In this document: positions 26,508 through 47,620 of the stretch, piece by piece | How positions within the stretch are numbered: position 1 is the stretch's first letter | How the letters are laid out: the number at the start of each line of letters is the position of its first letter | NCBI GenBank assembly: GCA_051294905.1 | Contig: CM119371.1 | Coordinates: forward strand, 5,272,001-5,336,000 | DNA from: Botryllus schlosseri | Taxonomy: Eukaryota | DNA: 64,000 bases | Direction of reading: 5' to 3' | Made by a program: the position numbers and the translations under genes | Notes under the pieces: model-generated | The model's input: the letters and a program-made list of their open reading frames with translations, nothing else | Told to the model about the DNA's origin: nothing | Databases searched by the model: none

Positions 26508-26532
26508 CAAAACACAACCCAGCGACCAGGCG
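26508..26532 (-). pseudogene. PLK1-like: 3' part of the PLK1-like kinase exon split by the palindromic element
   Basis: Reads (A)WSLGCVL followed by a GTGAGT donor (26507-26502), continuing the exon part at 45818-45982. Confidence 0.8.
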
Positions 26533-29500
26533 AGTAGTAAGGGGATCTACTTTTGTTGCAGGCCAATCAAATTTCGCCACGTCGCCCTAATTGCCACGCC
26601 TATATGACGCCCATTGCCGTACCTATAAGACACCCCTTGCCACATCATCCACCCATTGCCGCACCTATAGCACACCCATTGCCACTCATTGTTTTGTGAA
26701 TTTCAATACCGGTTTTCCATGTATATTTAGCAATATGTATTGAATAACTTGAAATGTATCATCACTAATTAATTAATATAAAATGCGATTTTAAGCGCTG
26801 CGACTTGAAAATATTAATATAATAAGTTACTTTTTTGGATATACATAACATTCAGATTACACATAAATTTCGAAAACTATGATGTCAATAGAATACTATA
26901 TTTGCCAGATATTCACAGATAACACTCATCAACGTTGAACTAGGCGCGGGGTTCTATGATGATATATCAAAATTCTACACATCATCACTAATTAATTAAT
27001 TCATATAAAATGCGATTTTGAGCGCAGACAGATCGCGGTTTCGATTGCCGAGGTCTCCGCATTTCATGACCTAATATGAACGCACACTATACAACTGAAT
27101 TCATTCCAATACCTGCAAATTTACTTTGCATGTCGAGTATAAGGATAATTTAATCAGCGCTAAACGCCAACGGACTAGCCGTAGGCGCACAATTCTCGGC
27201 GTTACAATTAAACAAACTTTTCGCGGCAGGTACGCGATTCCTAACGGTTTCTACAGTTTCCACATTTCACGACTTATTTTCTTTGGACGCATACAAGCGA
27301 TTCCCAAGGTCGAGGCTATGGAAACAAATCAAGCATGAGTACGTAAATCTTGAGCTTAGATCTCCGAGATTCTTGTATGCAACTAACATTATAGACAACC
27401 ATTCGACAATATTCAACCAGCAATAATGCTTTCGATATAGTGCATCATGTACAGCGACACGCTGATCAATTCAAATTCAACAATGGGATCCCCCCCGCAC
27501 AATTATGAAGCCCGTTGTTTGCTATAAGCCGGGAAATTAGAGTCGCTGCTTCGCACCATTTTACAGGCAGTCTCAGACACTTTGCTGCATCCGAGCTTCA
27601 TACTAATACATGCATAATTTTTGCATGACGAGAATACGGGTAATACGGTCAATAATTGCCGGAGGCGAGTCATTTAAACCTTGTTGCTAGATAATACCGC
27701 TTTCGGCTACAACAAAGTTGCCCTGCAACAAAAAATAGAAGCCCTAATGATCATGCAGAGGAAAGTTCAATTATACATCGAATTATTCGAATAGACTATC
27801 GACATTGTGTAGGTATGAAGTGAAATAGAACGGAGTTTACGCAAAAGTTGCTATTGATCATAGACCAAGCTTGCTTTCAGAGCTGGAAACTAAATGCATA
27901 TGAAAATTTACCTAGGTTTTCCCCACACGCATCAAATGTAGGCCTACTCAAGTGTTTATGAGGTGGCGAATAGTTCGAAGGTTTTTGGCATGCAAGGGTG
28001 TCACATAGAATTGTGGAGTTTTCTGTAAACTATAATCCAGTGATCGATTTTCAATCACTATATTTTTCATTAATATAAACTAAGTTACTGTTAGTAGGCA
28101 AACCCTAGGAAAGTATCCTCTGATAAAAGCAGGAGTATATTTGTTATCCGTGAAATAAATAGATGGTGCGCAATATGAGCGGTGCTGCGATGACTGACAA
28201 ATACTTTGAATTAATGTATAAAAGTAGCGATTTCGAACTACGTAAAAAGTTAGTCCAGCTCACGCAAGCGACAATTTGCGCGTTCTGAAGCCGTAAATTT
28301 ACTCAACAGCATTGAGATAGCCCTGATTTAAAGAAATTTCATCACACATCTAATGATGGAGCACCTTCAAAACTAACGCAGTCGAATACCGACTTTTACG
28401 CATATCTGTTTTGCATGAACATAGCGTATACCTAAACATAGTCAATTTTAATAACGGAATTACCATGCTAATAATCAAATCCCCAGCCTGAAACTTGGTA
28501 CGCAGTCGTAGGACATTATGAAAATACACCATACCAAACTTCGTCAGACATTTCATGATGTAACACCTTTAAAACTAACGCAGTTCTCTACAGACTTTTG
28601 CGTAAATCTGTTTTTCGGTATGCGATCGATGCATTAATGACTTTAATACTATGTACTTTAAATTATCCACACTTATGAGTCGAAATGTTGTTAAGTAACT
28701 CATGTTTTCAGCATAACCTAAAAGCAAAGTGGACGAATTTCCATGTTGATCAAATACCCCAAACACTGCTTGCTTTCATAGTTAGTAATTAAGCGCATCA
28801 CAGAATTTACCCAAAAAAGTCGGTACTCCGAAAATTTTGTAAAGTAGAGCTTTCGGCGTTGGACTTAAGTTCAAATGAACAAGTGTTCACGTAGGTTCGA
28901 GGTCTGAATGAGTCTTTTAAAGCATATAGAAACGAAAAAACTAATCTAAAAAATTTACGAAGTTTGGATGCGGCATATTTGGCTTTTTTAAAAATTATTT
29001 ATACCCACGATTCGAAATATTGTTAACTAACTTATGTTTTCGACATAAGATAAGCGTGAAGTGTACAAATTTCGATGTTGCGCAAATACCATAAACTTTT
29101 CTTGCTTTCAGAGCTGACAACTAAATGCAACACAGACTTTACGCAAAAAACTTATACTTGAGCACTACGAAATGTACAAGTACTTACCTTTACACGACGT
29201 TTTTTGTAAAATGAATACTAATTTTATTAAAAAATAAAATAGAGCGAAAAACTACATTTTATCCCGGAACGCAACATGAGAAATCGTTTCGATAATATCC
29301 AACATGGTGGTTCACTTCGAGGGTAATTTGATTTAGAAAATATTATACCGACATCGCGGCATCTTTTAAAAACAAAACCATGATCAATGCTTGAGAGACC
29401 ATTTTTGCTATTTTTCATTGACATAAGTCATTCTGGAACGCGAAAACGCATTGTACGATATAGATGAAAATCAAGCAAATCCTAGGATCCTCATTTTCAA

Positions 29501-29659
29501 AGTAGCTTAGATCTCGAAATAAGCTTTGACTCGCTATTCTCCTCAAACCATGGAATTATCACGAGTATCAGCACCTTCGATCACTGAAGAAAAAGATGAA
29601 ATTATATCCGAAGCATATTCCTTGACCAGGAATTTTATCATGTACGAACTCGACGGCTC

Positions 29660-32450
29660 ATGCTAATATGTGACTCCTCACCTTGAAACTTGGTACGTAG
29701 TTGTAGGAATTGTGATTATGCAGCATACCAAATTTCCTCACGCATTTCATAATGGAACAACTTTAAAACTAACGCGGTTCTACATCGACTTTTTGCGTAC
29801 ATCTGTTTTGCGTGGGGGCGTATAGCACGTACCTATACATAGTCAACTTTAACAACGGAATTACCATGCTTAACATTGAATCCCAACTCGAAACTTGATA
29901 CGTAGTTGTAGAACATTATGGCAATGCACCATGCTAAATTTCATCACACATCTAATGATGGAACACCTTTAAAACTAACGCAGTCGAATACCGACTTTTA
30001 CGCATATCTGTTTTGCGTGAACATAGCATATACCTATACATAGTCAATTTTAATAGCAGAATTACCATGTTAAACATTGAATTCCCACCTTGAAAGTTGG
30101 TACGCGGTTATAGGAGATTATAACAATGCACCATACCAAATCCCATCACACATTTCATGATGGAACAACTTTAAAACTAACGCGGCTCTACATCGACTTT
30201 TTGCGTACATCTGTTTTGCGGGAGCGTATAGCACGTAGCCTACCCATACATAGCCAACTTTAATAACGGAATTACCATGCTTAACATTGAATCCCAACTC
30301 GAAACTTGATACGTAGTTATAGGACATTATGGCAATTCACCATGCTAAATTTCATCACACATCTAATGATGGAACACCTTTGAAACTATCGCAGTCGAAT
30401 ACCAACTTTTACGCATATCTGTTTTTCGTGAACATAGCATATACCCATACATAGTCAATTTTAATAACAGAATTAGCATGCTAAACATTAAATTCTCACC
30501 TTGAACGTTGATACGCGGTTATAGGACATAATAACAATGCACCATACCAAATTTCGTCAGACATTTCATGATGTAATACCTTTAAAACCAACGCAGTTCT
30601 ATACAGACTTTTGGCTAAATCTGTTTTTCCGTAGCGTAGCACGTACCTATACATAGTAAACTTTAATAACGGATTTAGCATGTTAATAATCGACTTAGTT
30701 TAAATAAAATACGGAATATAAACTAATCGAAAAATTCGGTAACCAATTTCGCGTAGGCTATGCATGCATACAAATGAGGAAAGTTACATCAACGCGTGTT
30801 AAAGTAGCTTTATCGAGTTATCGAATGATTTTTCCTTACATCAAAACAACTAGAATGTAGAACTAAATTAAAAAACGTATCTAAATGAGCTCCAGGGCAT
30901 TGTGATTATGCTGCATACCAAATTTCATCACACATTTCATGATGGAACAACTTTAAAACTAACGCAGTTCTATAGCAACTTTTGCCTAAATCTCTTTTCG
31001 GTAGCGTGTACATATACATAGTCAGATTTAATAACAGAATTATCATGCTAATATGTGACTCCTCACCTTGAAACTTGGTACGTAGTTGTAGGACATTGTG
31101 ATTATGCAGCATACTAAATTTCTTCACGCATTTCATAATGGAACAACTTTAAAACTAACGCGGTTCTACATCGACTTTTTGCGTTCATCTGTTTTGCGTG
31201 GTGGCGTATAGCACGTACCTATACATAGTCAACTTTAACAACGGAATTACCATGCTTAACATTGAATCCCAACTCGAAACTTGATACGTAGTTGTAGGAC
31301 ATTATGGCAATGCACCATGCTAAATTTCATCACACATCTAATAATGGAACACCTTTAAAACTAACGCAGTCGAATACCGACTTTTACGCATATCTGTTTT
31401 GCGTGAACATAGCATATACCTATACATAGTCAATTTTAATAGCAGAATTACCATGTTAAACATTGAATTCCCACCTTGAAAGTTGGTACGCGGTTATAGG
31501 AGATTATAAAATGCACCATACCAAATCCCATCACACATTTCATGATGGAACAACTTTAAAACTAACGCGGCTCTACATCGACTTTTTGCGTACATCTGTT
31601 TTGCGGGAGCGTATAGCACGTAGCCTACCCATACATAACCAAATTTAATAACGGAATTACCATGCTTAACATTGAATCCCAACTCGAAACTTGATACGTA
31701 GTTATAGGACATTATGGCAATTCACCATGCTAAATTTCATCACACATCTAATGATGGAACACCTTTGAAACTATCGCAGTCGAATACCAACTTTTACGCA
31801 TATCTGTTTTTCGTGAACATAGCATATACCCATACATAGTCAATTTTAATAACAGAATTAGCATGCTAAACATTAAATTCTCACCTTGAACGTTGATACG
31901 CGGTTGTAGGACATAATAACAATGCACCATTCCAAATTTCGTCAGACATTTCATGATGTAACACCTTTAAAACCAACGCAGTTCTATACAGACTTTTGGC
32001 TAAATCTGTTTTTCCGTAGCGTAGCACGTACCTATACATAGTCAACTTTAATAACGGATTTAGCATGTTAATAATCGACTCCCCACCTTGAAACTCGGTA
32101 CGCAGTTGTAAGACATTATGAAAATGCACCATGTCAAATTTTGTTACGCATTTCTTGATTGAACAACTTTAAAACTAACGCAGTTCCATACCGACTTTTG
32201 CGAGTGCGTAGCACGTACCTATATGCATACTCAACTTTCATAACGGAATTACCGAGCTAAACATTGAATGCGCAACTTGAAGATTGGTTCACAGGTGTAG
32301 GGCAGTATGACAATGGAACACATCAAATTTCATCACACATTTCATGATGGAACACCTTTAAAACTAACGCAGTTCTATACCAACCTCGCGTGAATCTGTT
32401 TGCGGGAGCGCAGCACGTACCTATGCGTGATCAACTTTAGTGTTGGAATT
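29660..32450. repeat. Degenerate ~200-209-bp tandem repeat array in the left arm (13 units, plus 2 more at ~28335-28620)
   Basis: An AAAACTAACGC-like anchor recurs at 29765, 29971, 30173, 30382, 30584, 30955, 31151, 31357, 31558, 31767, 31969, 32171 and 32360. Confidence 0.9.
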
Positions 32451-32624
32451 ACATATGTAATTAAGTTTCAACACTTTTACAATGTTTCGTCTTGCTTCCT
32501 ATAACATCCCACTCGAGAAAATGCGTCGTAGGATATAGATGAAACTAGCACCACTCATCAAGACCGCTGAAAACAGTACATTTCAACATTTAGTAGCAGT
32601 AAATTTCTAGTAAAGTACAAGACA

Positions 32625-33389
32625 ATACTGCCAACGGTCGTTCAGATAGGATTCTTGCGATTTCGCACGAGAATCTATAAGCCACTTCCAGTTAGATGTT
32701 TCAAATGCAGCCGATTCGGTCACCGGGCAAAACACTGTAGAAGTACACAACGATGCACTAAATGTGGTGGTAGACATGAGTACTCGGCATGTCAGAATGC
32801 ACCCCGCTGCGTAAACTGCGGTGAAGCACACTCGGCGGGCTACACAGGATGCAGACGCTACAGACATGAGGTACAAGTCAATGCCATTATGGCGAACGAA
32901 AAGGTTAATTATTGGGAGGCGAATAAAATGATACAGACGCGAACGGCCACAGTAAACATACACTCTCCACAGGAATTTCCTCCATTGCCTAGCAATAACC
33001 TCCCACATTATGCGGATCAAACGATACTTCCAGCTGCGGCACTCGCAACATGCATGCGACCGGCTCCTGCTTCGCAAGAGCCAGTTGCCACAATACAATC
33101 CGACACGATAACTATATCAAAAACTAGCTTCTTCAAATTCATCGCAGATGTTATGAAGAATACTTTACTAGATTTCAATCAAGGTAAACAACTCGACATA
33201 GAGGCAATAGTCGCTAAATCAGCAGAAGGGATTTTCGGATTCCCCACTTCAGAATTGACTAGGTTTCCCACCACACAATCGCAACCCGATGGCGTGTTGG
33301 ATCTTACGAAAGCGACGCACCACGATTCTCTTCCACCTCACAATATAGTCGACGAACATTCTCCGGGAAATAAATCACCGCCTTCATGA
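32625..33389 (+). CDS. LINE ORF1 (gag-like), N-terminally truncated
   Basis: Open from the insertion junction (ILPTVVQIGFLRFRTRIYKPLPVR), followed by three CCHC knuckles: CFKCSRFGHRAKHC, CTKCGGRHEYSAC and CVNCGEAHSAGYTGC. Confidence 0.88.
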   Translation: MLPTVVQIGFLRFRTRIYKPLPVRCFKCSRFGHRAKHCRSTQRCTKCGGRHEYSACQNAPRCVNCGEAHSAGYTGCRRYRHEVQVNAIMANEKVNYWEANKMIQTRTATVNIHSPQEFPPLPSNNLPHYADQTILPAAALATCMRPAPASQEPVATIQSDTITISKTSFFKFIADVMKNTLLDFNQGKQLDIEAIVAKSAEGIFGFPTSELTRFPTTQSQPDGVLDLTKATHHDSLPPHNIVDEHSPGNKSPPS

Positions 33390-36300
33390 TACCTTTATCC
33401 ATTTTTCAATGGAACTGTCGTGGTATATATCACAAGCTACACGAATTGAAACACTTATTGACAAACTCGGCTGTGAAACCCGACATTATAGCCATCCAAG
33501 AATCTCACCTAGTATCCAAATACGTGCCTGTTATACATGGCTATTCCCTCGTAAGAAAAGATAGAGACGTTAATGGTGGAGGTGTGTGCTTCTTCATCAG
33601 CAATATGATTAAATTCGTTGAAATTCCTCTCCACGGTTACTCGCCAATTGAAGTGTTAGCAATAGAGGTAGAAGGGACACGCATATACAACGTTTACGTA
33701 CCCCCAGGAAGAGCTATATCACGAGATTTATTCTACCGTATCTTCGCCCAACACAGTAATAAATGCATTTATCTAGGTGATTTCAACGCTCATCATCCGA
33801 TGTTTAAGAGCATTCGCACAAATTCTTACGGTCGTCACCTCAACGCGGCGATGGATCGTTTTGATTTGGTTGCGCTGAACACAGACGTGCCAACCCGAGT
33901 GAACTTTTCCCTTAACGCGACGCAACGGCACAGCATACTTGACCTGACGCTGGCCACTCCCGACATTGCCCACCGAATTTCTACTACGGTCACAGACAGC
34001 CTGCTGGGCAGCGATCATTATATCATTATTAATGAAATCGACACAACTACCGACCGGACCCCTGAATGTCATGTTGAATCGTGGGCTCTGAAACGTGCCA
34101 ACTGGCAAAAATTCGCCGTTCTGTGCAACCAAGAACTTGAAGGATCTGCCCAGAACTCGCTGACGGTGGAAGATTTCACCAGAATACTCATCTCCACAGC
34201 CGCAATCTGTATCCCGACAACAAAGCCCCGTAAGAAGCCCATGATGCCGTGGTGGAACGATGCCTGCTCGCGGGCAATCAGGTTGAAGAAAGCTGCCTTC
34301 AAAAAAATGAAGCTCACATTCCGGGAAGACGCAATAATCTTATTTAAAAGGCGCAGGGCAGAGGCCAGAAAAACAATATTGGAGACTAAGAAAACATTTT
34401 GGCGGTCATTTTGCAACTCCCTTGATAAAAATTGCAAATTATCCAAAGTATGGAGAATAGCCAAATCTATGAATGGTTACAAAACTTGGAGCCATATCAG
34501 CGTGTTGTCGCACAACGGAGCTACGGTTAAAGGAGACATAAATATCGCAAACACCCTAGCAAAACAATTTCGCTCTGTTAGCAGCGATGAAAACTACGAT
34601 CCGACATTTCGAAACCAACGCCTCTCGATTGAGAAATCCTTCCGCGACAACGAAGCAACGGCTGCAGTGCAAAGTAGCTTGTCACCGGTCGATATCAATT
34701 CAGAATTCACAATGGTCGAACTGAAGAATGTTCTCAAAACACGAAAAAGCACAGCCCCTGGTGTCGACAGAGTATGTCAGCAAATGCTTGCAAACCTGCC
34801 TGAAGATTGCTTATCCGTACTGATCGGCATCATAAACGAATCGTGGAGAACCGGCAAATGCCCACAATCTTGGAAGCACGCTATCGTTGTACCAATTCCC
34901 AAGCCTGGTAAACCGAAAGAATCCGTTTCCTCGTACAGGCCCATTTCCCTCACGAGCAATTTATGTAAGAGTGTCGAACGAATGATCAATTACAGATTGA
35001 AATGGTGGCTTGATAGCAAAAAATTACTCCATCCCGCGCTCAGCGGGTTTCGAAGTAGACGTTCAGCAAAAGATTGTATCATGAGTCTACATGACGATGT
35101 CTACAAGTCCATATGGAACCAGCGATCAACAATAGCTGTGTTCATAGACTTAGAGAAAGCGTATGACATGGTTTGGATAAATGGACTAATCCACAAGCTA
35201 CACGGTCAGGGTTTGCGAGGAAACATACTAGACTGGTTGAGGTCGTTCTTATCGGATAGAAAATTTCAGGTTCGCGTGGGGTCTTCTTATTCGGACATAT
35301 TTCCGCTAGAAAACGGTCTTCCTCAGGGCAGCGTTTTAAGCCCGATCATGTACAACCTCATGATGAACGATCTGCCTGATCAAATTGAATCAAGCATCAA
35401 TATATTCGCAGATGATATATGTTTGTGGGAGACTGGTCTCAATATCGAACACATTGCCACTTCACTCCAGGCGTCATTGGAGAAGTTGTCAGATTGGTGT
35501 AAAAAATGGGGATTTCGAATAAATGCAAATAAATGCTCCTCTATGATATTCACCAAAAAACGTAAATTACCAGATGTCCGACTGAAAATAGATGGGATAA
35601 CCGTGCCTATCAGTAATGAATTTAAATATCTCGGGGTCGTATTCGATAAACGATTATCCTATAAAGCGCACACCAATGTAGTTGCAGCGAAATGCGTTGC
35701 GCGATTGAATTTGCTACGTTTCCTAAGTGGCACCACTTGGGGAGCGTCCAAGGAATGTTTAATGACGATTTATAGAGTACTTATACGGTCAGTGATCGAG
35801 TATGGCTTTGAGGCATATATGTTTAGCCCAAAATACAATTCAAACCGTATCCAGTGGATACAAAACGCCGCCTTGAGAATTTGTTGCGGGGCAATGAAAA
35901 GCACCCCGATTTGTACACTCCAACATACAACGAATGAATTGCCGATTCACATTCGCCACCGCAGAGCTTGCTTAATATACAAGTGCTACGTCCGATCTCA
36001 CCCAACGCATCCATGTCGGCCACTATGCGAGAACTCTTGGCACGAAATTTTCCCAGATTCGATCAAGTTTACCACTTTTAATATGTACACTCAAATATCA
36101 AGCATAAGGGGACTTGACATTGCGGTTCCCAGCCCAATTTCCCTTCCACCATGGATTGACCTACCGGTAAAAGTTGATACATGTCTTCGAAGTTTGGCTT
36201 ATCACCACCCTAACTCACCGTTCGGACGTGAGTGTCAAGACTACGTAGAAACCAACTATGACTTATATTTACAAATATATACTGATGGCTCCAAAATGGA

Positions 36301-37126
36301 CAGCGGATGTGGTAGTAGTTTTCATGTCAATCTTTTGAACATCTCCTCGAAATTTCGAATCCCCAAAACAAGATCTATATTTACAGCAGAGTTGTTTGCG
36401 ATCTACAAAGCTCTGGAATGGGTTTCCGGACAATGCGAGCCGCCAAGTCATAATAGTATAGCCATTCTTTCGGATAGTCTAAGCGCTTTGGACGCGATAC
36501 AGCACCGTTCCTCGACTCATCATTTAATTTCCAAAATATTCGATGTATGCTTAGATCTCTTAAAAAGAGAAATTATTATTGCTTTTATATGGATTCCAGG
36601 TCACGAAGGCGTCGGTTTCAATCACGTCGCAGACACCCTCGCAAAGGAGGCCGCCGGGGGCGAAGCAGGAGTCAACGACGAAGAAAGTCTGAAAATAACA
36701 CTATCGGAATGCAAGACTATCATAAACGAGCAATCCGAAAGGTGGTGGACCTCCGAGTTCAATGCGGCAGAGACTGGTTTGCACTATCGACGCTTCACTG
36801 AAGACAAAGAAACCACAAAGGAAATGAATAAGCTGGATAAACAATATAGTACAACGCTATTTAGACTCCAGACAGGCCATTGCAAACTCAACGGACACCT
36901 GTACCGTATTGGGTGCCATGATGATGGACTATGTGAAATTTGTTACTCGGAGGAATCGGTCGAACACTTCTTGATCCAGTGCAGCAGATACGACGACCAC
37001 CGAACTTCACTTAAAAGAGCCGCCGAACAATTAGGCATATGTTTTGTACTGGACAATTTATTATCTGACCCCAGAATGCTTATAAAAGTAGTGGAATTTG
37101 TAAATGCCACCGGGCGAGTCATCTGA
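33386..37126 (+). CDS. LINE ORF2: APE endonuclease, reverse transcriptase, RNase H and C-terminal zinc knuckle (1246 aa, uninterrupted)
   Basis: APE motifs QWNCRG, IQESH, GDFNAH, SDH. RT motifs YRPISLTS, PQGSVLSP, FADD, YLGV. RNase H motifs YTDGSK, AELFAI, SDSLSAL, WIPGH..N..AD.LAK. C-terminal CEIC..ESVEHFLIQC. Confidence 0.96.
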   Translation: MIPLSIFQWNCRGIYHKLHELKHLLTNSAVKPDIIAIQESHLVSKYVPVIHGYSLVRKDRDVNGGGVCFFISNMIKFVEIPLHGYSPIEVLAIEVEGTRIYNVYVPPGRAISRDLFYRIFAQHSNKCIYLGDFNAHHPMFKSIRTNSYGRHLNAAMDRFDLVALNTDVPTRVNFSLNATQRHSILDLTLATPDIAHRISTTVTDSLLGSDHYIIINEIDTTTDRTPECHVESWALKRANWQKFAVLCNQELEGSAQNSLTVEDFTRILISTAAICIPTTKPRKKPMMPWWNDACSRAIRLKKAAFKKMKLTFREDAIILFKRRRAEARKTILETKKTFWRSFCNSLDKNCKLSKVWRIAKSMNGYKTWSHISVLSHNGATVKGDINIANTLAKQFRSVSSDENYDPTFRNQRLSIEKSFRDNEATAAVQSSLSPVDINSEFTMVELKNVLKTRKSTAPGVDRVCQQMLANLPEDCLSVLIGIINESWRTGKCPQSWKHAIVVPIPKPGKPKESVSSYRPISLTSNLCKSVERMINYRLKWWLDSKKLLHPALSGFRSRRSAKDCIMSLHDDVYKSIWNQRSTIAVFIDLEKAYDMVWINGLIHKLHGQGLRGNILDWLRSFLSDRKFQVRVGSSYSDIFPLENGLPQGSVLSPIMYNLMMNDLPDQIESSINIFADDICLWETGLNIEHIATSLQASLEKLSDWCKKWGFRINANKCSSMIFTKKRKLPDVRLKIDGITVPISNEFKYLGVVFDKRLSYKAHTNVVAAKCVARLNLLRFLSGTTWGASKECLMTIYRVLIRSVIEYGFEAYMFSPKYNSNRIQWIQNAALRICCGAMKSTPICTLQHTTNELPIHIRHRRACLIYKCYVRSHPTHPCRPLCENSWHEIFPDSIKFTTFNMYTQISSIRGLDIAVPSPISLPPWIDLPVKVDTCLRSLAYHHPNSPFGRECQDYVETNYDLYLQIYTDGSKMDSGCGSSFHVNLLNISSKFRIPKTRSIFTAELFAIYKALEWVSGQCEPPSHNSIAILSDSLSALDAIQHRSSTHHLISKIFDVCLDLLKREIIIAFIWIPGHEGVGFNHVADTLAKEAAGGEAGVNDEESLKITLSECKTIINEQSERWWTSEFNAAETGLHYRRFTEDKETTKEMNKLDKQYSTTLFRLQTGHCKLNGHLYRIGCHDDGLCEICYSEESVEHFLIQCSRYDDHRTSLKRAAEQLGICFVLDNLLSDPRMLIKVVEFVNATGRVI

Positions 37127-39901
37127 TTGCTTGACAATGTGGACTTTATTATGGGCCCTTGAGTCATGGTGCGAAATGACTTCGTAGTCGGTGCACCAAT
37201 TTTCCCTTATTCAACCAACCAACCAAGACCGCTGAAAACAGTACATTTCAACATTAAGTAGCAGTAAATTTCTAGTAAAGTACAAGACGTGATGATTTCC
37301 GAGTGAGCTAAAAAGTAAGTATTGCAGGTATAGTTTACCTGAAAACCGAATACTCTGAAATAGAAGTAGATGCAGTGTAAATAGTTGATCACTTGATTAA
37401 GTTTAGTGCAAGCAGATAAAACCTATACTTGAGTAGTACAAAATGCACGAGTACTTCGCTATCGCCTCCCTCCACGTAATAAGTGTCTACGGTTTAAGAC
37501 TGCTTTTACCGATACTCGTCCGTTTCAGTTTTAGATAGAATTCGGAAACCAAATAATTTTCATAAACATAAGCTAATTTAATGAATTTACTCGAATGCAC
37601 TATGCTGCGCTGATAAGATTAATTATAATATAATTATCATGTTACAGCGATTTTTCTAGCGTAGAAAATCTTTAAAATGTAGTAAGCAGGCCAAATGAAG
37701 ATATTCGTTGAGCTGAATAAACATAAAAATACTCTAGACTACTTTATCGGTACTTTACAGTTACAGTTTTAGATAAAATTTGTCCCTTTCACCTATAATT
37801 ACAACTCCTCGCTATCTAAACATGTTTAGAATATATTATTTGCGATGATACGAACCCGTGAAGTACTCAAGTTGCTTTTCGTAGGATATAGATGAAACTG
37901 ACAACACTCACCAAGACCAGTGATCCACTGAAAAAAGTACATTGTAGCAGTAAAGTCCTACTAAAGTACAAGAAGTAATGATTTCCCAGTTAGTTAAAAA
38001 GTAAGTATTGAGGTATAGTTTGGTCGAAAAAGCGAAAAACTCTGAAATAGAAGTAGATGCAGTGTAAATAGGTAATCACTTCATTAAGTATAGCGCAAGC
38101 AGGCCAAACCCATACTTAAGTACTGCAAATGTACAAGTACTTCGCTATGTTCTCCCTCCACGTAAAAAGTGACTAGGTTTTAGAGTACTTTATCGGTACT
38201 CGACAGTTTCAGTGTTAGATAAAATTTGGTAAGACTTTAAATTTTAAAGTAGTTTGAGCTTACGTTTGTATCACCTTGACAAGTAACATTATCAGACATG
38301 AAAATGATACTATCACCGAATATAGAAGTTAACACGCGTCAATGTGCTTCGGAATGCACGAGAAATTGCTTACTAAGAGAAGTATATTGTTGTATACACA
38401 ATAGTGGAGAGAATATTTAAAATGTAGTAAGCAGGCCGATGGGTATTCGTTTAGTTGTATAGGCATAAAAAACATTCCCGCGCGCGCGTCTTAGTATTAG
38501 GTGGTAGGGTTAGGAAGTGCTTTGTTTAAGAGCGCGCGGGAATGTTTTTCATGTCTATACAACTAAACGAATACCCATCGGCCTGCTTACTACATTTTAA
38601 ATATTCTCTCCACTATTGTGTATACAACAATATACTTCTCTTAGTAAGCAATTTCTCGTGCATTCCGAAGCACATTGACGCGTGTTAACTTCTATATTCG
38701 GTGATAGTATCATTTTCATGTCTGATAATGTTACTTGTCAAGGTGATACAAACGTAAGCTCAATCTACTTTAAAATTTAAAGTCTTACCAAATTTTATCT
38801 AACACTGAAACTGTCGAGTACCGATAAAGTACTCTAAAACCTAGTCACTTTTTACGTGGAGGGAGAACATAGCGAAGTACTTGTACATTTGCAGTACTTA
38901 AGTATAGGTTTGGCCTGCTTGCGCTATACTTAATGAAGTGATTACCTATTTACACTGCATCTACTTCTATTTCAGAGTTTTTCGCTTTTTCGACCAAACT
39001 ATACCTCAATACTTACTTTTTAACTAACTGGGAAATCATTACTTCTTGTACTTTAGTAGGACTTTACTGCTACAATGTACTTTTTTCAGTGGATCACTGG
39101 TCTTGGTGAGTGTTGTCAGTTTCATCTATATCCTACGAAAAGCAACTTGAGTACTTCACGGGTTCGTATCATCGCAAATAATATATTCTAAACATGTTTA
39201 GATAGCGAGGAGTTGTAATTATAGGTGAAAGGGACAAATTTTATCTAAAACTATAACTGTAAAGTACCGATAAAGTAGTCTAGAGTATTTTTATGTTTAT
39301 TCAGCTCAACGAATATCTTCATTTGGCCTGCTTACTACATTTTAAAGATTTTCTACGCTAGAAAAATCGCTGTAACATGATAATTATATTATAATTAATC
39401 TTATCAGCGCAGCATAGTGCATTCGAGTAAATTCATTAAATTAGCTTATGTTTATGAAAATTATTTGGTTTCCGAATTCTATCTAAAACTGAAACGGACG
39501 AGTATCGGTAAAAGCAGTCTTAAACCGTAGACACTTATTACGTGGAGGGAGGCGATAGCGAAGTACTCGTGCATTTTGTACTACTCAAGTATAGGTTTTA
39601 TCTGCTTGCACTAAACTTAATCAAGTGATCAACTATTTACACTGCATCTACTTCTATTTCAGAGTATTCGGTTTTCAGGTAAACTATACCTGCAATACTT
39701 ACTTTTTAGCTCACTCGGAAATCATCACGTCTTGTACTTTACTAGAAATTTACTGCTACTAAATGTTGAAATATACTGTTTTCAGCGGTCTTGATGAGTG
39801 GTGCTAGTTTCATCTATATCCTACGACGCATTTTCTCGAGTGGGATGTTATAGGAAGCAAGACGAAACATTGTAAAAGTGTTGAAACTTAATTACATATG
39901 T

Positions 39902-42692
39902 AATTCCATCACTAAAGTTGATCACGCATAGGTACGTGCTGCGCTCCCGCAAACAGATTCACGCGAGGTTGGTATAGAACTGCGTTAGTTTTAAAGGTGT
40001 TCCATCATGAAATGTGTGATGAAATTTGATGTGTTCCATTGTCATACTGCCCTACACCTGTGAACCAATCTTCAAGTTGCGCATTCAATGTTTAGCTCGG
40101 TAATTCCGTTATGAAAGTTGAGTATGCATATAGGTACGTGCTACGCACTCGCAAAAGTCGGTATGGAACTGCGTTAGTTTTAAAGTTGTTCAATCAAGAA
40201 ATGCGTAACAAAATTTGACATGGTGCATTGTCATAATGTCTTACAACTGCGTACCGAGTTTCAAGGTGGGGAGTCGATTATTAACATGCTAAATCCGTTA
40301 TTAAAGTTGACTATGTATAGGTACGTGCTACGCTACGGAAAAACAGATTTAGCCAAAAGTCTGTATAGAACTGCGTTGGTTTTAAAGGTGTTACATCATG
40401 AAATGTCTGACGAAATTTGGAATGGTGCATTGTTATTATGTCCTACAACCGCGTATCAACGTTCAAGGTGAGAATTTAATGTTTAGCATGCTAATTCTGT
40501 TATTAAAATTGACTATGTATGGGTATATGCTATGTTCACGAAAAACAGATATGCGTAAAAGTTGGTATTCGACTGCGATAGTTTCAAAGGTGTTCCATCA
40601 TTAGATGTGTGATGAAATTTAGCATGGTGAATTGCCATAATGTCCTATAACTACGTATCAAGTTTCGAGTTGGGATTCAATGTTAAGCATGGTAATTCCG
40701 TTATTAAATTTGGTTATGTATGGGTAGGCTACGTGCTATACGCTCCCGCAAAACAGATGTACGCAAAAAGTCGATGTAGAGCCGCGTTAGTTTTAAAGTT
40801 GTTCCATCATGAAATGTGTGATGGGATTTGGTATGGTGCATTTTATAATCTCCTATAACCGCGTACCAACTTTCAAGGTGGGAATTCAATGTTTAACATG
40901 GTAATTCTGCTATTAAAATTGACTATGTATAGGTATATGCTATGTTCACGCAAAACAGATATGCGTAAAAGTCGGTATTCGACTGCGTTAGTTTTAAAGG
41001 TGTTCCATTATTAGATGTGTGATGAAATTTAGCATGGTGCATTGCCATAATGTCCTACAACTACGTATCAAGTTTCGAGTTGGGATTCAATGTTAAGCAT
41101 GGTAATTCCGTTGTTAAAGTTGACTATGTATAGGTACGTGCTATACGCCACCACGCAAAACAGATGAACGCAAAAAGTCGATGTAGAACCGCGTTAGTTT
41201 TAAAGTTGTTCCATTATGAAATGCGTGAAGAAATTTGGTATGCGGCATAATCACAATGTCCTACAACTACGTACCAAGTTTCAAGGTGAGGAGTCACATA
41301 TTAGCATGATAATTCTGTTATTAAATCTGACTATGTATATGTACACGCTACCGAAAACAGATTTAGGCAAAAGTTGCTATAGAACTGCGTTAGTTTTAAA
41401 GTTGTTCCATCATGAAATGTGTGATGAAATTTGGTATGCAGCATAATCACAATGCCCTGGAGCTCATTTAGATACGTTTTTTAATTTAGTTCTACATTCT
41501 AGTTGTTTTGATGTAAGGAAAAATCATTCGATAACTCGATACAGCTACTTTAACACGCGTTGATGTAACTTTCCTCATTTGTATGCATGCATAGCCTACG
41601 CGAAATTGGTTACCGAATTTTTCGATTAGTTTATATTCCGTATTTTATTTAAACCAAGTCGATTATTAACATGCTAAATCCGTTATTAAAGTTTACTATG
41701 TATAGGTACGTGCTACGCTACGGAAAAACAGATTTAGCCAAAAGTCTGTATAGAACTGCGTTGGTTTTAAAGGTATTACATCATGAAATGTCTGACGAAA
41801 TTTGGTATGGTGCATTGTTATTATGTCCTATAACCGCGTATCAACGTTCAAGGTGAGAATTTAATGTTTAGCATGCTAATTCTGTTATTAAAATTGACTA
41901 TGTATGGGTATATGCTATGTTCACGAAAAACAGATATGCGTAAAAGTTGGTATTCGACTGCGATAGTTTCAAAGGTGTTCCATCATTAGATGTGTGATGA
42001 AATTTAGCATGGTGAATTGCCATAATGTCCTATAACTACGTATCAAGTTTCGAGTTGGGATTCAATGTTAAGCATGGTAATTCCGTTATTAAAGTTGGCT
42101 ATGTATGGGTAGGCTACGTGCTATACGCTCCCGCAAAACAGATGTACGCAAAAAGTCGATGTAGAGCCGCGTTAGTTTTAAAGTTGTTCCATCATGAAAT
42201 GTGTGATGGGATTTGGTATGGTGCATTGTTATAATCTCCTATAACCGCGTACCAACTTTCAAGGTGGGAATTCAATGTTTAACATGGTAATTCTGCTATT
42301 AAAATTGACTATGTATAGGTATATGCTATGTTCACGCAAAACAGATACGCGTAAAAGTCGGTATTCGACTGCGTTAGTTTTAAAGGTGTTCCATCATTAG
42401 ATGTGTGATGAAATTTAGCATGGTGCATTGCCATAATGTTCTACAACTACGTATCAAGTTTCGAGTTGGGATTCAATGTTAAGCATGGTAATTCCGTTGT
42501 TAAAGTTGACTATGTATAGGTACGTGCTATACGCCCCCACGCAAAACAGATGTACGCAAAAAGTCGATGTAGAACCGCGTTAGTTTTAAAGTTGTTCCAT
42601 TATGAAATGCGTGAGGAAATTTGGTATGCTGCATAATCACAATTCCTACAACTACGTACCAAGTTTCAAGGTGAGGAGTCACATATTAGCAT
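39902..42692. repeat. Mirror copy of the ~200-209-bp tandem array in the right arm
   Basis: Reverse complement of 29660-32450. Confidence 0.9.
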
Positions 42693-45600
42693 GAGCCGTC
42701 GAGTTCGTACATGATAAAATTCCTGGTCAAGGAATATGCTTCGGATATAATTTCATCTTTTTCTTCAGTGATCGAAGGTGCTGATACTCGTGATAATTCC
42801 ATGGTTTGAGGAGAATAGCGAGTCAAAGCTTATTTCGAGATCTAAGCTACTTTGAAAATGAGGATCCTAGGATTTGCTTGATTTTCATCTATATCGTACA
42901 ATGCGTTTTCGCGTTCCAGAATGACTTATGTCAATGAAAAATAGCAAAAATGGTCTCTCAAGCATTGATCATGGTTTTGTTTTTAAAAGATGCCGCGATG
43001 TCGGTATAATATTTTCTAAATCAAATTACCCTCGAAGTGAACCACCATGTTGGATATCATCGAAACGATTTCTCATGTTGCGTTCCGGGATAAAATGTAG
43101 TTTTTCGCTCTATTTTATTTTTTAATAAAATTAGTATTCATTTTACAAAAAACGTCGTGTAAAGGTAAGTACTTGTACATTTCGTAGTGCTCAAGTATAA
43201 GTTTTTTGCGTAAAGTCTGTGTTGCATTTAGTTGTCAGCTCTGAAAGCAAGAAAAGTTTATGGTATTTGCGCAACATCAAAATTTGTACACTTCACGCTT
43301 ATCTTATGTCGAAAACATAAGTTAGTTAACAATATTTCGAATCGTGGGTATAAATAATTTTTAAAAAAGCCAAATATGCCGCATCCAAACTTCGTAAATT
43401 TTTTAGATTAGTTTTTTCGTTTCTATATGCTTTAAAAGACTCATTCAGACCTCGAACCTACGTGAACACTTGTTCATTTGAACTTAAGTCCAACGCCGAA
43501 AGCTCTACTTTACAAAATTTTCGGAGTACCGACTTTTTTGGGTAAATTCTGTGATGCGCTTAATTACTAACTATGAAAGCAAGCAGTGTTTGGGGTATTT
43601 GATCAACATGGAAATTCGTCCACTTTGCTTTTAGGTTATGCTGAAAACATGAGTTACTTAACAACATTTCGACTCATAAGTGTGGATAATTTAAAGTACA
43701 TAGTATTAAAGTCATTAATGCATCGATCGCATACCGAAAAACAGATTTACGCAAAAGTCTGTAGAGAACTGCGTTAGTTTTAAAGGTGTTACATCATGAA
43801 ATGTCTGACGAAGTTTGGTATGGTGTATTTTCATAATGTCCTACGACTGCGTACCAAGTTTCAGGCTGGGGATTTGATTATTAGCATGGTAATTCCGTTA
43901 TTAAAATTGACTATGTTTAGGTATACGCTATGTTCATGCAAAACAGATATGCGTAAAAGTCGGTATTCGACTGCGTTAGTTTTGAAGGTGCTCCATCATT
44001 AGATGTGTGATGAAATTTCTTTAAATCAGGGCTATCTCAATGCTGTTGAGTAAATTTACGGCTTCAGAACGCGCAAATTGTCGCTTGCGTGAGCTGGACT
44101 AACTTTTTACGTAGTTCGAAATCGCTACTTTTATACATTAATTCAAAGTATTTGTCAGTCATCGCAGCACCGCTCATATTGCGCACCATCTATTTATTTC
44201 ACGGATAACAAATATACTCCTGCTTTTATCAGAGGATACTTTCCTAGGGTTTGCCTACTAACAGTAACTTAGTTTATATTAATGAAAAATATAGTGATTG
44301 AAAATCGATCACTGGATTATAGTTTACAGAAAACTCCACAATTCTATGTGACACCCTTGCATGCCAAAAACCTTCGAACTATTCGCCACCTCATAAACAC
44401 TTGAGTAGGCCTACATTTGATGCGCCTGGGGAAAACCTAGGTAAATTTTCATATGCATTTAGTTTCCAGCTCTGAAAGCAAGCTTGGTCTATGATCAATA
44501 GCAACTTTTGCGTAAACTCCGTTCTATTTCACTTCATACCTACACAATGTCGATAGTCTATTCGAATAATTCGATGAATAATTGAACTTTCCTCTGCATG
44601 ATCATTAGGGCTTCTATTTTTTGTTGCAGGGCAACTTTGTTGTAGCCGAAAGCGGTATTATCTAGCAACAAGGTTTAAATGACTCGCCTCCGGCAATTAT
44701 TGACCGTATTACCCGTATTCTCGTCATGCAAAAATTATGCATGTATTAGTATGAAGCTCGGATGCAGCAAAGTGTCTGAGACTGCCTGTAAAATGGTGCG
44801 AAGCAGCGACTCTAATTTCCCGGCTTATAGCAAACAACGGGCTTCATAATTGTGCGGGGGGGATCCCATTGTTGAATTTGAATTGATCAGCGTGTCGCTG
44901 TACATGATGCACTATATCGAAAGCATTATTGCTGGTTGAATATTGTCGAATGGTTGTCTATAATGTTAGTTGCATACAAGAATCTCGGAGATCTAAGCTC
45001 AAGATTTACGTACTCATGCTTGATTTGTTTCCATAGCCTCAACCTTGGGAATCGCTTGTATGCGTCCAAAGAAAATAAGTCGTGAAATGTGGAAACTGTA
45101 GAAACCGTTAGGAATCGCGTACCTGCCGCGAAAAGTTTGTTTAATTGTAACGCCGAGAATTGTGCGCCTACGGCTAGTCCGTTGGCGTTTAGCGCTGATT
45201 AAATTATCCTTATACTCGACATGCAAAGTAAATTTGCAGGTATTGGAATGAATTCAGTTGTAGTGTGCTTTCATATTAGGTCATGAAATGCGGAGACCTC
45301 GGCAATCGAAACCGCGATCTGTCTGCGCTCAAAATCGCATTTTATATGAATTAATTAATTAGTGATGATGTGTAGAATTTTGATATATCATCATAGAACC
45401 CCGCGCCTAGTTCAACGTTGATGAGTGTTATCTGTGAATATCTGGCAAATATAGTATTCTATTGACATCATAGTTTTCGAAATTTATGTGTAATCTGAAT
45501 GTTATGTATATCCAAAAAAGTAACTTATTATATTAATATTTTCAAGTCGCAGCGCTTAAAATCGCATTTTATATTAATTAATTAGTGATGATACATTTCA

Positions 45601-45817
45601 AGTTATTCAATACATATTGCTAAATATACATGGAAAACCGGTATTGAAATTCACAAAACAATGAGTGGCAATGGGTGTGCTATAGGTGCGGCAATGGGTG
45701 GATGATGTGGCAAGGGGTGTCTTATAGGTACGGCAATGGGCGTCATATAGGCGTGGCAATTAGGGCGACGTGGCGAAATTTGATTGGCCTGCAACAAAAG
45801 TAGATCCCCTTACTACT

Positions 45818-45982
45818 CAGGCGTCCGCTTCGAAACTGTGTTCATTCTTGCCGAGAACTTCCGGGTCATTAATAGTCGGGGCTGCCGCAAAGAGTATTCG
45901 TTGTGTGGCTGTCGCAGACGACCTTGGTAGCTTGACCAAAATCTTCAAACTTCACCTCATTATTGTTTGGGAAGTCTGTCAG
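45818..45982 (-). pseudogene. PLK1-like: PLK1-like kinase exon (subdomains VII-IX), 5' part, frameshifted
   Basis: NNEVKFEDFGQATKVVCDSHTTNTLCGSPDY(*/fs)PEVLGKNEHSFEADA vs PLK1 [47 protein letters not shown]. Confidence 0.85.
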
Positions 45983-46329: not shown

Positions 46330-47620
46330 TTTACGCGCTTTTTTCTGACTATTTCTCCGGTTTACGCGCTTTTTTCCAACTATTACCATTTTCTAAATAA
46401 CCGTGGAAATCCTTGTATCCATGAAGAATACGGTACAGTACCGTAAAAAGGGGTCAATCATAATTCTCATTTTTTTAGTTATCATTTTTCGAAAAACCGT
46501 GAAAATCCATGCACCCATGTAGAATATGGTCACGTAAACATCAAATGTCTGCGCGCGTTAAAAGAGCTTACTTGATTTCATGAGGGAAGGCCCTCTTACA
46601 TTTATGCGATTTTTGGTTCTCATTTTGCGAATAATCGTGAAAATACATGCAGGCCTACCTATGTAGAATATGATAGGCCAACCGTAAACAGTGGTCGATC
46701 ATTAAATTTCTGCACCGGTTAAAAGAGCTTACTTTTATTTTATGAGGGAAGGCCCTCCTACATTTACGCAATTTATAGTTATCATTTTACGAATAACCGT
46801 GGAAAGACATGTAGGCCTACCCATGTAGAATATGGTACCGTAAACAGTTGTCGATCATCAAATTTCTGTGCGCGGTAAATGAGCTTACATTGATTTTACA
46901 AGGGTGGTCTCCTACATTTACGCGATTTTTGGTTATCATTTTTTGAAAATAGCTGAAAATACATGCAGGCCTAACCATATAAAATATGGTACCGTAAACA
47001 GTTGTCGATCATTAAATTTCCGCACGCGTTGTGCATGCGAGCTTACTTCGATTTATGAGGGGGGCCCCTCCTACATTTACGTATTTTTGGTTATCATTTT
47101 GCGAATAACCGTGAAAATATATGTGCCCATGTAGAATATGGTACCGTAAACAGTTGTCGATCATTAAATCCTGCACGCATTGTACGAGCTTACTTAGATT
47201 TCATGAGGAGGGGCCCTCCTACATTTACAAAATTTTTGGTTATCATTTTGCGAATGACCGTGAAAATATATGTACATGTACTGTACACCTGTAGAATATG
47301 ATACCGTAAACAGTTGTTGATCATTAAATCCTGCCCGCGTTGTACGAGATTACTTCGATTTACGCAATTTTTGGTTATCATTTTGCAAATAACTGAAAAT
47401 ACATGCAGCCATGCAGGCCTACCCATGTAGAAAATGTTACTGTAAACAGTTGTCGATAATTAAATTTCTGCACATGTTATAAGAGCTTACTTATATTTTA
47501 TGAGGGGGGCCCTGCTACATTTATGGAATTTATAGTTATCGTTTTGCGAATAACCGTGAAAACATATGTAGGCTACCCATGTAAAATATGGTACCGTAAA
47601 CGGTTGTCGATCATCAAATT
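46330..47620. repeat. ~150-bp degenerate tandem repeat (about 8 units) inside the hAT element
   Basis: TATGGTACCGTAAACAGTTGTCGATCAT recurs at ~46831, ~46985, ~47137 and in more diverged form on either side. Confidence 0.85.

Follow-up and report, generated by a model that had tools for sequence, protein, structure and literature searches.

Foldback transposons such as Drosophila FB have long inverted arms, which in classical foldback elements consist partly of tandem sub-repeats, and FB itself lies between target-site duplications (TSDs) of 9 bp. Yeast killer-plasmid hairpin plasmids and the snap-back incomplete genomes of adenovirus are extrachromosomal by-products of laboratory culture or infection in which a protein-primed end is inverted around a turn-around and a helper supplies polymerase and terminal protein. 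Hairpin tips are also found in parvoviruses and poxviruses, where they occur in flip and flop orientations. For Maverick/Polinton elements, the protein-primed model of replication rests on gene content and on a reiterated end motif; to our knowledge, their replication has never been shown.

According to the portions of PMC8097293 consulted, the Maverick end signature is 5′-(AGT)2//(ACT)2-3′ together with a perfect 6-bp TSD, the repetition of the end motif is tied to jumping-back in protein-primed replication, and the inverted repeats of vertebrate Mavericks measure 46-1,447 bp. Excerpts of PMC4196379 give for Polintons a 6-bp TSD, a terminal tandem repeat of 1-3 bp and a single-stranded, racket-like intermediate. 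The rDNA of Tetrahymena is a ~21-kb palindrome with a 28-bp non-palindromic spacer separating the short inverted repeats that formation of the palindrome requires (PMC5182062, in part), and snap-back defective viral genomes of RNA viruses consist of one end plus its complement and depend on a helper (PMC6140465, in part). No description of palindromic or foldback derivatives of Polintons was found in the open-access literature.

The locus studied here lies in a 64,000-nt stretch of the Botryllus schlosseri genome (the window; contig CM119371.1, positions 5,272,001 to 5,336,000). Like Mavericks/Polintons, its element has (AGT)2...(ACT)2 ends, a 6-bp TSD and terminal inverted repeats (PMC8097293 and PMC4196379, in the parts describing element ends), but it is devoid of polymerase, integrase and capsid genes, its likeness to an autonomous copy does not extend past that motif at the ends, and its inverted repeats are 7.3 kb long and meet at a 33-nt loop. 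It fits the Maverick/Polinton class by its ends only, as a non-autonomous member that has none of the genes of an autonomous one. Its family resembles the foldback transposons in having long, nearly meeting arms with tandem sub-repeats, mostly non-coding copies and arms that change in lock-step, and differs from FB in its 6-bp TSD, Maverick-type ends and conserved clamp-and-loop centre. With the yeast hairpin plasmids and adenovirus snap-backs it shares the inverted duplication of a protein-primed-type end around a turn-around and, as proposed here, helper dependence, although it is chromosomally integrated, diversified and represented by hundreds of candidate copies. The Tetrahymena rDNA is likewise a giant palindrome centred on a short non-palindromic spacer, but it is a host minichromosome whose spacer is mostly unconserved, as far as the sections seen of PMC5182062 describe it, whereas the foldback family is mobile, with TSDs and a conserved loop core. 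Snap-back defective viral genomes offer the same plan of one end plus its complement, with helper dependence being a proposal in our case, although they belong to the RNA viruses (PMC6140465, the part available). What is new here is the occurrence of Maverick-type ends together with the conserved apex of a giant foldback family. We consider it somewhat probable that this apex is a conserved turn-around of a non-coding, giant palindromic family with Maverick/Polinton-type ends that depends on the autonomous Polintons of the genome.

Results

Architecture of the window element

The element occupies 19,285 bp (26533-45817) and consists of two ~7.3-kb inverted arms and a 33-nt unpaired, G-rich loop, with positions 38461-38556 forming the axis. 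The palindrome proper is ~14.6 kb, a 4.6-kb LINE being a later insertion in one arm. Its parts outside the apex are:

26527-26532, no strand: target-site duplication, left copy, CAGGCG, the same hexamer standing beside both ends
26533-27513, plus strand: left terminal module, which opens with AGTAGT, the (AGT)2 end motif; ~1 kb common to other subfamilies
26533-32623, plus strand: left arm, outer part, with inverted repeats I1 and I5 and direct repeat families D4, D6 and D9
32559-32623, no strand: 65-bp duplication from the LINE insertion, copy 1, single in the uninterrupted right arm
32624-37223, plus strand: non-LTR retrotransposon, 5′-truncated, left arm only, with a (CAAC)n tail
37224-37288, no strand: 65-bp duplication from the LINE insertion, copy 2, likewise single in the uninterrupted right arm
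37289-38476, plus strand: left arm, inner part, with a ~687-bp internal repeat and I2, D18 and D20
38532-45817, minus strand: right arm, uninterrupted; the plus strand terminates in ACTACT
45818-45823, no strand: target-site duplication, right copy, CAGGCG

The arms are complementary at 99-100% in all three aligned pieces (26532-27089/45261-45818, 27085-32623/39729-45267 and 37224-38485/38532-39793). Long inverted arms that nearly meet and contain tandem sub-repeats, as expected of foldback structure, were thus found; arrays of a ~202-bp tandem unit and a 1385-bp higher-order repeat lie in the outer left arm at about 28228-32388. All reading frames in the uninterrupted right arm are of 95 codons or fewer, the arm has no coding capacity, and the element has no genes of its own, the sole genes present being those of the inserted LINE: a CCHC ORF1 (32655-33389) and an ORF2 (33386-37126) with Exo_endo_phos, RVT_1 (3e-42) and RNase_H domains.

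The termini read 5′-AGTAGT...ACTACT-3′ with the TSD CAGGCG on both sides. This single TSD around the whole palindrome bears out the proposal that what is integrated is the dimer in its unfolded state, and the end motif with its 6-bp TSD agrees with the published Maverick signature (PMC8097293, in the part on ends), which supports the proposed protein-primed type of outer end.

Structure and authenticity of the apex

The apex comprises the following features:

38420-38597, no strand: conserved apex module, ~178 bp, with ~62-bp stems, G+C clamps and a loop of TAGG repeats; its left boundary, 38419, was placed by the loose end of a read
38477-38485, plus strand: left G+C clamp CCCGCGCGC, after which an additional GCG (38486-38488) makes up the bulge
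38489-38493, plus strand: left half of the mini-stem, TCTTA, 5 bp, subfamily-specific
38494-38526, plus strand: G-rich loop, 33 nt, unpaired, containing TAGGGTTAGG, with the core GGTGGTAGGGTTAGGA at 38500-38515
38527-38531, plus strand: right half of the mini-stem, TAAGA; the right clamp starts at 38532

The layout of arms, GCG bulge, TCTTA and 33-nt loop is as the original prediction had read it, and folding of 38441-38580 as single-stranded DNA reproduced exactly the stem, 3-nt bulge and open 33-nt loop, with a 5-bp mini-stem. The predicted energy was -49.2 kcal/mol versus -13.7 +/- 2.7 in 200 shuffles (0/200 as good), and the loop folded alone by the single-stranded DNA method gave no structure. 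The prediction also had mismatches clustering near the tip; two are present, lying 22 nt and 26 nt away from the clamp, but they are private to the window copy, and most other copies pair there. Similarly, the 3-nt bulge exists in the window copy but reflects a (CG)n difference in length, which ranges between 1 and 3 nt among copies, the clamp length stepping by CG from copy to copy. The loop repeat had been called telomere-like, and TTAGGG is indeed the host's own telomere repeat, an array of which occupies the end of contig C1 (3741 forward and 7693 reverse matches vs 0 for a reversed control).

The palindrome could in principle be the product of a fold-back chimeric read, or of a chance template-switch junction peculiar to this copy. 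Chimeric long reads are known to show themselves as near-perfect palindromes with short spacers, but 40 other near-identical apexes were scored in the genome, the LINE, bearing a 65-bp TSD of its own, interrupts just one arm, and a 6-bp TSD surrounds the whole element. The apex sequence is also present in three other sequencing runs, in which a contig under a second organism label (organism B) extends from the left arm across the loop, and another (X8) covers the loop and right arm. The likelihood of an artefact or a one-off junction is therefore negligible. No RNA dataset was among those listed as containing the sequence; one raw RNA run contained 9 reads at 90-95% likeness, which originate from other copies.

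That the stem-loop functions as RNA transcribed from the element, such as a hairpin RNA or a precursor of small RNAs, is very improbable. In Rfam it gave only sub-threshold matches to two miRNA precursor models, which could be read in favor of such a role, but the scores (30.2 and 24.9 bits vs gathering scores of 100) are as low as expected for any long hairpin, and the palindrome spans the whole 14.6 kb, beyond the size of a precursor.

Ends shared with autonomous Polintons

The same contig carries an autonomous Polinton of 18,263 bp (G000:C1:5923771-5942033), which encodes a polymerase (PF03175, 32.6 bits) and an rve+chromo integrase and has a 443-bp terminal inverted repeat (TIR), the ends AGTAGTGTAG (AGTAGTG) and the 6-bp TSD GCCGAG. 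The scan of this copy found polymerase, integrase and a weak match to an ATPase, while 5 of the 8 ORFs had no Pfam match. A whole-genome profile scan with PF03175 gave no match, a false negative, since a protein query found at least 38 polymerase copies; all 38 scored (from 436 candidates) were 92-95% identical, and 34 of these 38 had no internal stop. The Polinton and the foldback element agree in end motif and TSD length, and the foldback copy on C17 has the first 10 nt of its end in common with the Polinton end. Beyond end motif and TSD length, blastn and tblastn of the foldback arms against this one autonomous copy found no match, and the local alignment score of 23 lay within the range of shuffled sequences (maximum 29). 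No nickase or resolvase for the tip was found in the foldback element, which has no genes of its own, or in the one Polinton copy scanned.

Among the 12 end pairs considered, 8 have a perfect 6-bp TSD (6 by script; L027/L026 and L019/L018 by eye), one matches at 5/6 positions and 3 were not assessable. By script, AGTAGT stands at both ends in 8/12 pairs, and one more pair has AGTAGT / AGTATT.

These ends bear on the possibility that the family is an ordinary cut-and-paste foldback transposon like FB, mobilized by an unidentified DDE transposase and resembling Mavericks at its ends by coincidence. Arms built partly of tandem sub-repeats and the absence of any Polinton homology past the end motif would suit such an element, but the 6-bp TSD and AGTAGT ends fit both the Maverick signature (PMC8097293, as excerpted) and the Polinton of the same contig, one foldback copy has 10 terminal nucleotides in common with that Polinton, and no transposase gene was found in any of the 5 foldback elements whose sequence was read completely or almost completely. 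We regard this explanation as improbable. Given its Maverick-hallmark ends, the foldback element may instead be a parasite of Polintons.

Conservation of the apex

Genome searches, in each of which 40 matches were scored out of 640-1290 candidates, found at least 40 other near-identical apexes (40/40 scored at 97-100% identity, of 643 candidates); judged from such sequence matches, candidate foldback copies number in the hundreds. Among relatives found through their ends rather than their centres, the apex module lay on the axis in 6/6 (4 sequenced, 2 judged by coordinates), these six being our choice among the end pairs listed. The G+C clamp and TAGG-rich loop are kept in 21/21 aligned apexes from several subfamilies, every loop (21/21) having 3-5 TAGG on one strand and a core identity of 0.87-0.91. 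Identity between groups runs at 0.80-0.84 for the stems and 0.87 for the loop core, against 0.48-0.57 for the flanks. Subfamilies cannot be aligned beyond the ~1-kb ends and the ~178-bp module. Positions 1-981 of the window arm match the C10 and C9 element ends at 93-94% identity, with unrelated interiors; apart from the apex and three short stretches, the window and C10 arms have nothing but their ends in common.

The central position of the module in all six end-found relatives, together with the 21 aligned apexes, argues for a defined, inherited site, and the equal alternative once allowed for, a chance template-switch junction, is contradicted by the same six relatives and by the near-identical apexes elsewhere. 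Unrelated centres or non-palindromic relatives, which would have spoken against a defined site, did not appear in the window family; a second Maverick-ended family does have unrelated, larger centres. In this second family, which carries the autonomous Polinton's own TIR, inverted repeats are symmetric about the midpoint in 6/10 elements, the centres measure 340-868 bp, and the window apex was at the midpoint of 0/10. Since this family attains a near-palindromic architecture with other centres, the apex is not a requirement for it.

Conservation of the module could be mere descent. The family may be a passive relic of one ancestral snap-back or inverted duplication, in which the apex is an inherited spacer of no role, the arms are matched by chromosomal gene conversion or template switching, and insertion still proceeds via Maverick-type ends. 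Several observations are in keeping with this: the unrelated centres of the second family; the differences among copies and subfamilies in bulge length and in the TCTTA/TAAGA mini-stem; the persistence, unconverted, of insertions confined to one arm in the window copy and in others; and the case of Tetrahymena rDNA, whose short inverted repeats still function after replacement by unrelated sequence and whose spacer is mostly unconserved (PMC5182062, in the part seen). On the other hand, the unpaired loop core (0.87-0.91) is conserved like the stems (0.80-0.88), identity just outside the module falls to 0.48-0.70 and alignment fails, the module is central in every end-ascertained element, and outside the tip no asymmetry turned up that several copies had inherited. 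On balance we judge a passive relic unlikely, and favor an apex that serves as a conserved turn-around.

Identity of the arms

Left and right arms within one copy diverge by 0.04-0.3%, and at distances of more than 60 nt from the clamp left and right differ 62 times over 42,077 nt. Inherited left/right asymmetry is limited to the tip, where loop and longer clamp are coupled in 12/12 copies; the comparison of left and right arms found none elsewhere that several copies had inherited. Gene conversion of the ordinary kind, acting on inverted repeats that lie close together, could explain this identity. Near-identical arms, and subfamilies that can be aligned only at their ends and apex, fit a non-coding fold-back parasite of Polintons.

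Discussion

If the apex is a conserved turn-around in such a parasite, linear DNA copies would be made by the protein-primed polymerase of Polintons, priming at the AGTAGT ends, and new copies would be inserted by the retrovirus-like integrase of the same elements. A displaced single strand of the palindrome would fold into a 7.3-kb hairpin with the apex as its loop, and copying or repair of this hairpin would keep the arms alike. Retention of the G+C clamp and of an unpairable, telomere-like loop might reflect the need for an open-centred turn-around or the loss of perfect palindromes.

More tentatively, we propose a specific form of this cycle, a snap-back satellite of Polintons whose heritable unit would be one 7.3-kb arm plus the apex. 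The helper polymerase would copy it from the AGTAGT end round the clamp and loop and back, the second arm would be remade in each cycle, and the helper integrase would insert the unfolded dimer, the TAGG(G) loop being kept open or else bound and protected like a chromosome end. If true, this would account for the identical arms of giant foldback elements and tie foldback architecture to virus-like elements. The retention of only a Maverick end and a fold-back apex across a family of hundreds of candidate copies points to what the minimal cis-acting parts are, and the family provides a natural substrate for asking about single-stranded fold-back intermediates of Polintons.

Two smaller observations concern orientation. 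A left/right difference ~235 nt from the apex, which at first appeared to be common to the window and C9 copies, was rejected as inherited asymmetry because the two copies have different bases there. Flip and flop forms of the tip were not seen, orientation being undefined for a symmetric element; in tandem pairs, both loops lie on one strand in 8/8 cases.

Structure of the palindrome and its apex

The apex, a GC-clamped stem-loop with a G-rich loop at 38461-38556, lies at the center of a giant palindromic mobile element (the foldback element) that starts with AGTAGTAAGG and ends with its complement.

Features of the window element
26533-45817: whole element, 19,285 bp, large inverted repeat with the apex as axis
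26527-26532 and 45818-45823: target-site duplication (TSD), hexamer CAGGCG, flanking both sides
32624-37223: 5′-truncated non-LTR retrotransposon interrupting the left arm; endonuclease, reverse transcriptase, RNase H
38486-38488: bulge GCG, 3 nt (single-stranded DNA fold)
mini-stem TCTTA/TAAGA, 5 bp (single-stranded DNA fold)
38494-38526: open loop, 33 nt (single-stranded DNA fold)

Without the retrotransposon the element measures 14,620 bp, or two arms of ~7.3 kb, which contain ~202-bp tandem units arranged in a 1385-bp higher-order repeat; the longest reading frame of the uninterrupted arm is at most 95 codons. The insert terminates in a (CAAC)n tail and is flanked by a 65-bp duplication of its own (32559-32623 = 37224-37288), a stretch that is single copy in the right arm. 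This target duplication (spanning 32559-37288) is unusually long, and the ORF2 of the retrotransposon is open over 1246 aa. Just beyond the right end of the element, ~150-160-bp repeats with a common TGGTACCGTAAACAGTTGTCGATCAT core cluster at 46367-47651; 84-bp tandem arrays lie near both window ends (1384-2691 and 62348-63235; 13 and 8 overlapping registers listed), and at 9239-9397 a short run of 21-bp tandem repeats contains many CCCGCAAAACC-like units.

Re-reading of the sequence bore out the base-level description of 38461-38556 in the original prediction. As single-stranded DNA, 38441-38580 folds into a long stem, the bulge, the mini-stem and the open loop at -49.2 kcal/mol, versus -13.7 +/- 2.7 in shuffled sequences (n=200; 0/200 as low), while the 33-nt loop folded by itself forms no structure. 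Two stem mismatches are private to the window copy. The term telomere-like, used for the loop repeats, is apt because TTAGGG is the telomere repeat of the host. An assembly artefact is ruled out, because contigs of other runs also contain apex sequence (one of 320 nt covering 38250-38553, from a run that carries a second organism label, and one of 115 nt from run X8 covering 38481-38595) and because the retrotransposon, a LINE, is present in one arm only.

Maverick-type ends and a candidate helper

A genome search with a 261-bp apex sequence yielded 643 candidates at first look. All 40 places that were scored are 97-100% identical to it on one strand and 87-88% on the opposite one; each of our genome searches scored ~40 places out of many hundreds of candidates. 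Copies read over a span of 10 kb are palindromic throughout it (99.5-99.6%). Relatives of the terminal 269 bp occur as +/- pairs, 10-34 kb apart. Perfect 6-bp TSDs flank 8 of 12 end pairs (six by script; L027/L026 and L019/L018, fetched stretches, by eye), one further pair matches at 5 of 6 positions, and three were unusable, one end being truncated, mutated or mispaired; a scripted search detected AGTAGT at both ends of 8/12. Vertebrate Mavericks are described as having conserved 6-bp end motifs, most commonly 5′ AGT twice and 3′ ACT twice, with perfect 6-bp TSDs, and the repetition in the motif is expected to permit a jumping-back step in protein-primed replication (PMC8097293). The ends of the foldback element are Maverick/Polinton ends, and by them the family belongs to the Mavericks/Polintons as a non-autonomous form.

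A gene-bearing Polinton resides on the same contig as the window:

G000:C1:5923771-5942033: autonomous Polinton, 18,263 bp (sequence read)

Its terminal inverted repeats (TIRs; 443 bp, 99.5%) end in AGTAGTGTAG and its TSD is GCCGAG. It encodes an rve+chromo integrase and a polymerase of 1214 residues (PF03175, 32.6 bits; cut-off, 25.8), and contains a weak match to an A32-like ATPase. The first 10 terminal bases of a foldback copy on contig C17 match those of this Polinton, and past the end motif the foldback arms have nothing detectable in common with the one autonomous copy compared. Querying the genome with the polymerase protein scored 38 places among 436 candidates, all 92-95% identical and 34/38 without an internal stop. 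A Pfam-based genome scan with PF03175 gave zero matches despite these at least 38 close genes, and is judged a false negative because the protein query found them; a family scan of this genome that comes back negative calls for caution.

Conservation of the apex module

Four sequenced relatives found via their ends have the apex module at the arm junction (4/4), allowing for one-arm changes.

Relatives with the module at the arm junction
C10 element: 239-bp duplication in one arm
C12 element: left arm with a 5.5-kb insert, right arm with 1.25 kb of additional sequence
C9 element: 4.4-kb insert in the right arm
C3 element: ~3.6 kb between apex and right arm

By coordinates, the apex match lies 118 bp and ~560 bp off the midpoint of the end pair in the C8 and C6 elements. 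When 21 apexes drawn from several subfamilies were aligned, a common module of ~178 bp (38420-38597) emerged, outside which the subfamilies are unalignable.

Identity between the two main groups of apexes
Stems: 0.80 and 0.84
16-nt loop core: 0.87
Flanks directly outside the module: 0.48 and 0.57

A clamp of G+C only adjoins the loop in 21/21 apexes. The original prediction had called for a check on whether other copies conserve the loop, and they do: besides the core identity of 0.87, all 21 loops carry three to five TAGG on the same strand, with 14-23 G versus 2-4 C, and a two-tetrad G-quadruplex pattern fits 15/21 by sequence. The TCTTA/TAAGA mini-stem is confined to one group, and the bulge comes from unequal (CG)n lengths and differs in size between copies. 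Outside the apex, the arm of the window copy shares the first ~1 kb (94%) and three stretches of 93-288 nt with that of C10, and nothing else. Because other arm sequence is largely unshared between subfamilies, the foldback family preserves two things, its ends and its apex. The apex might be a passive relic, merely an inherited central spacer without a role of its own, which we consider rather unlikely; we lean toward the apex being the turn-around of non-coding palindromes that have Maverick-type ends and depend on Polintons.

The C10 subfamily has an open 220-codon Bcl-2-family frame once per arm (Pfam Bcl-2, 2e-21; best solved relatives Mcl-1, 1e-11), which may be, judged from its sequence, an anti-apoptotic cargo gene carried symmetrically.

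Bcl-2-family frames (G000:C10 ~28.606-28.610 Mb)
L045:4598-5257 (+)
L045:7440-8099 (-)

Lock-step arms and a proposed hairpin intermediate

More than 60 nt from the clamp, left and right arms differ at 62 positions in 42,077 nt (0.15%; 12 copies), versus 6% between subfamilies at the ends, their interiors being unalignable: the two arms of a copy evolve in lock-step. The sole asymmetry common to copies is the tip, with the loop and the longer clamp on the same side in 12/12. Eight extra differences fall within 60 nt, in 3/12 copies, whereas the distal rate predicts ~1 (P ~1e-5, Poisson arithmetic on the 12-copy counts). A site ~235 nt from the apex differs left/right in two copies; inherited asymmetry was rejected there because the two carry different bases.

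Because a retrovirus-like integrase acts on free linear DNA and catalyses insertion but not excision, new copies would have to arise by replication. If the turn-around reading holds, the foldback intermediate would take the form of a 7.3-kb hairpin, the apex forming the racket head; its arms would pair, and repair or re-copying would then erase arm differences everywhere but at the tip. The nearest mechanistic parallels are adenovirus snap-back genomes and the hairpin or palindromic-dimer forms derived from linear killer plasmids of yeast; foldback transposons have the same build. The Kapitonov-Jurka model invokes a single-stranded intermediate that its TIRs fold into a racket (summary in PMC4196379). 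The Tetrahymena rDNA palindrome is a close parallel, although its 28-bp center is described as mostly not conserved, unlike the foldback loop (PMC5182062). The open-access literature searched yielded no description of palindromic Polinton derivatives.

Apexes 5.4-10.4 kb apart are on the same strand in 8/8 pairs, flip and flop being indistinguishable in a symmetric element. On C9 a further close pair, the ninth, has its apexes on opposite strands, but one copy matches the query at 99% and the other at 84%, and the two belong to different subfamilies. The C13 pair has arms cut near arm position 2100, with the terminal module, the ~1 kb shared at arm ends, missing. In the same-strand pairs, truncated units are duplicated directly in tandem and do not form mirror-image concatemers.

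Direct tandem duplicates of truncated palindromic units without the terminal module (periods 5.4-10.4 kb)
G000:C13:14011123-14021766
G000:C5:24804886-24811966
six other pairs

A second family with the TIR of the autonomous Polinton

Elements with the autonomous Polinton's own TIR (90-97% identical) appear as pairs 7.8-19 kb apart.

Second-family elements
G000:C15:753707-767608
G000:C6:17224689-17238501
G000:C15:5777570-5790975
G000:C3:33194504-33208379
G000:C13:20194753-20207983
G000:C11:1164401-1176615

At 6 of 10 midpoints, inverted repeats are symmetric about the predicted position within 14 bp; they reach within 170-430 bp of it and enclose a non-palindromic center of 340-868 bp, in elements of 12-14 kb. 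Because their arm lengths are equal, these elements are probably palindromic over their full length. The apex module was found at 0/10 midpoints, and a match to the Polinton interior in 0/10 midpoint stretches. Four of the ten stretches have a center in common, at 80-96%, and three of these four are among the six symmetric ones.
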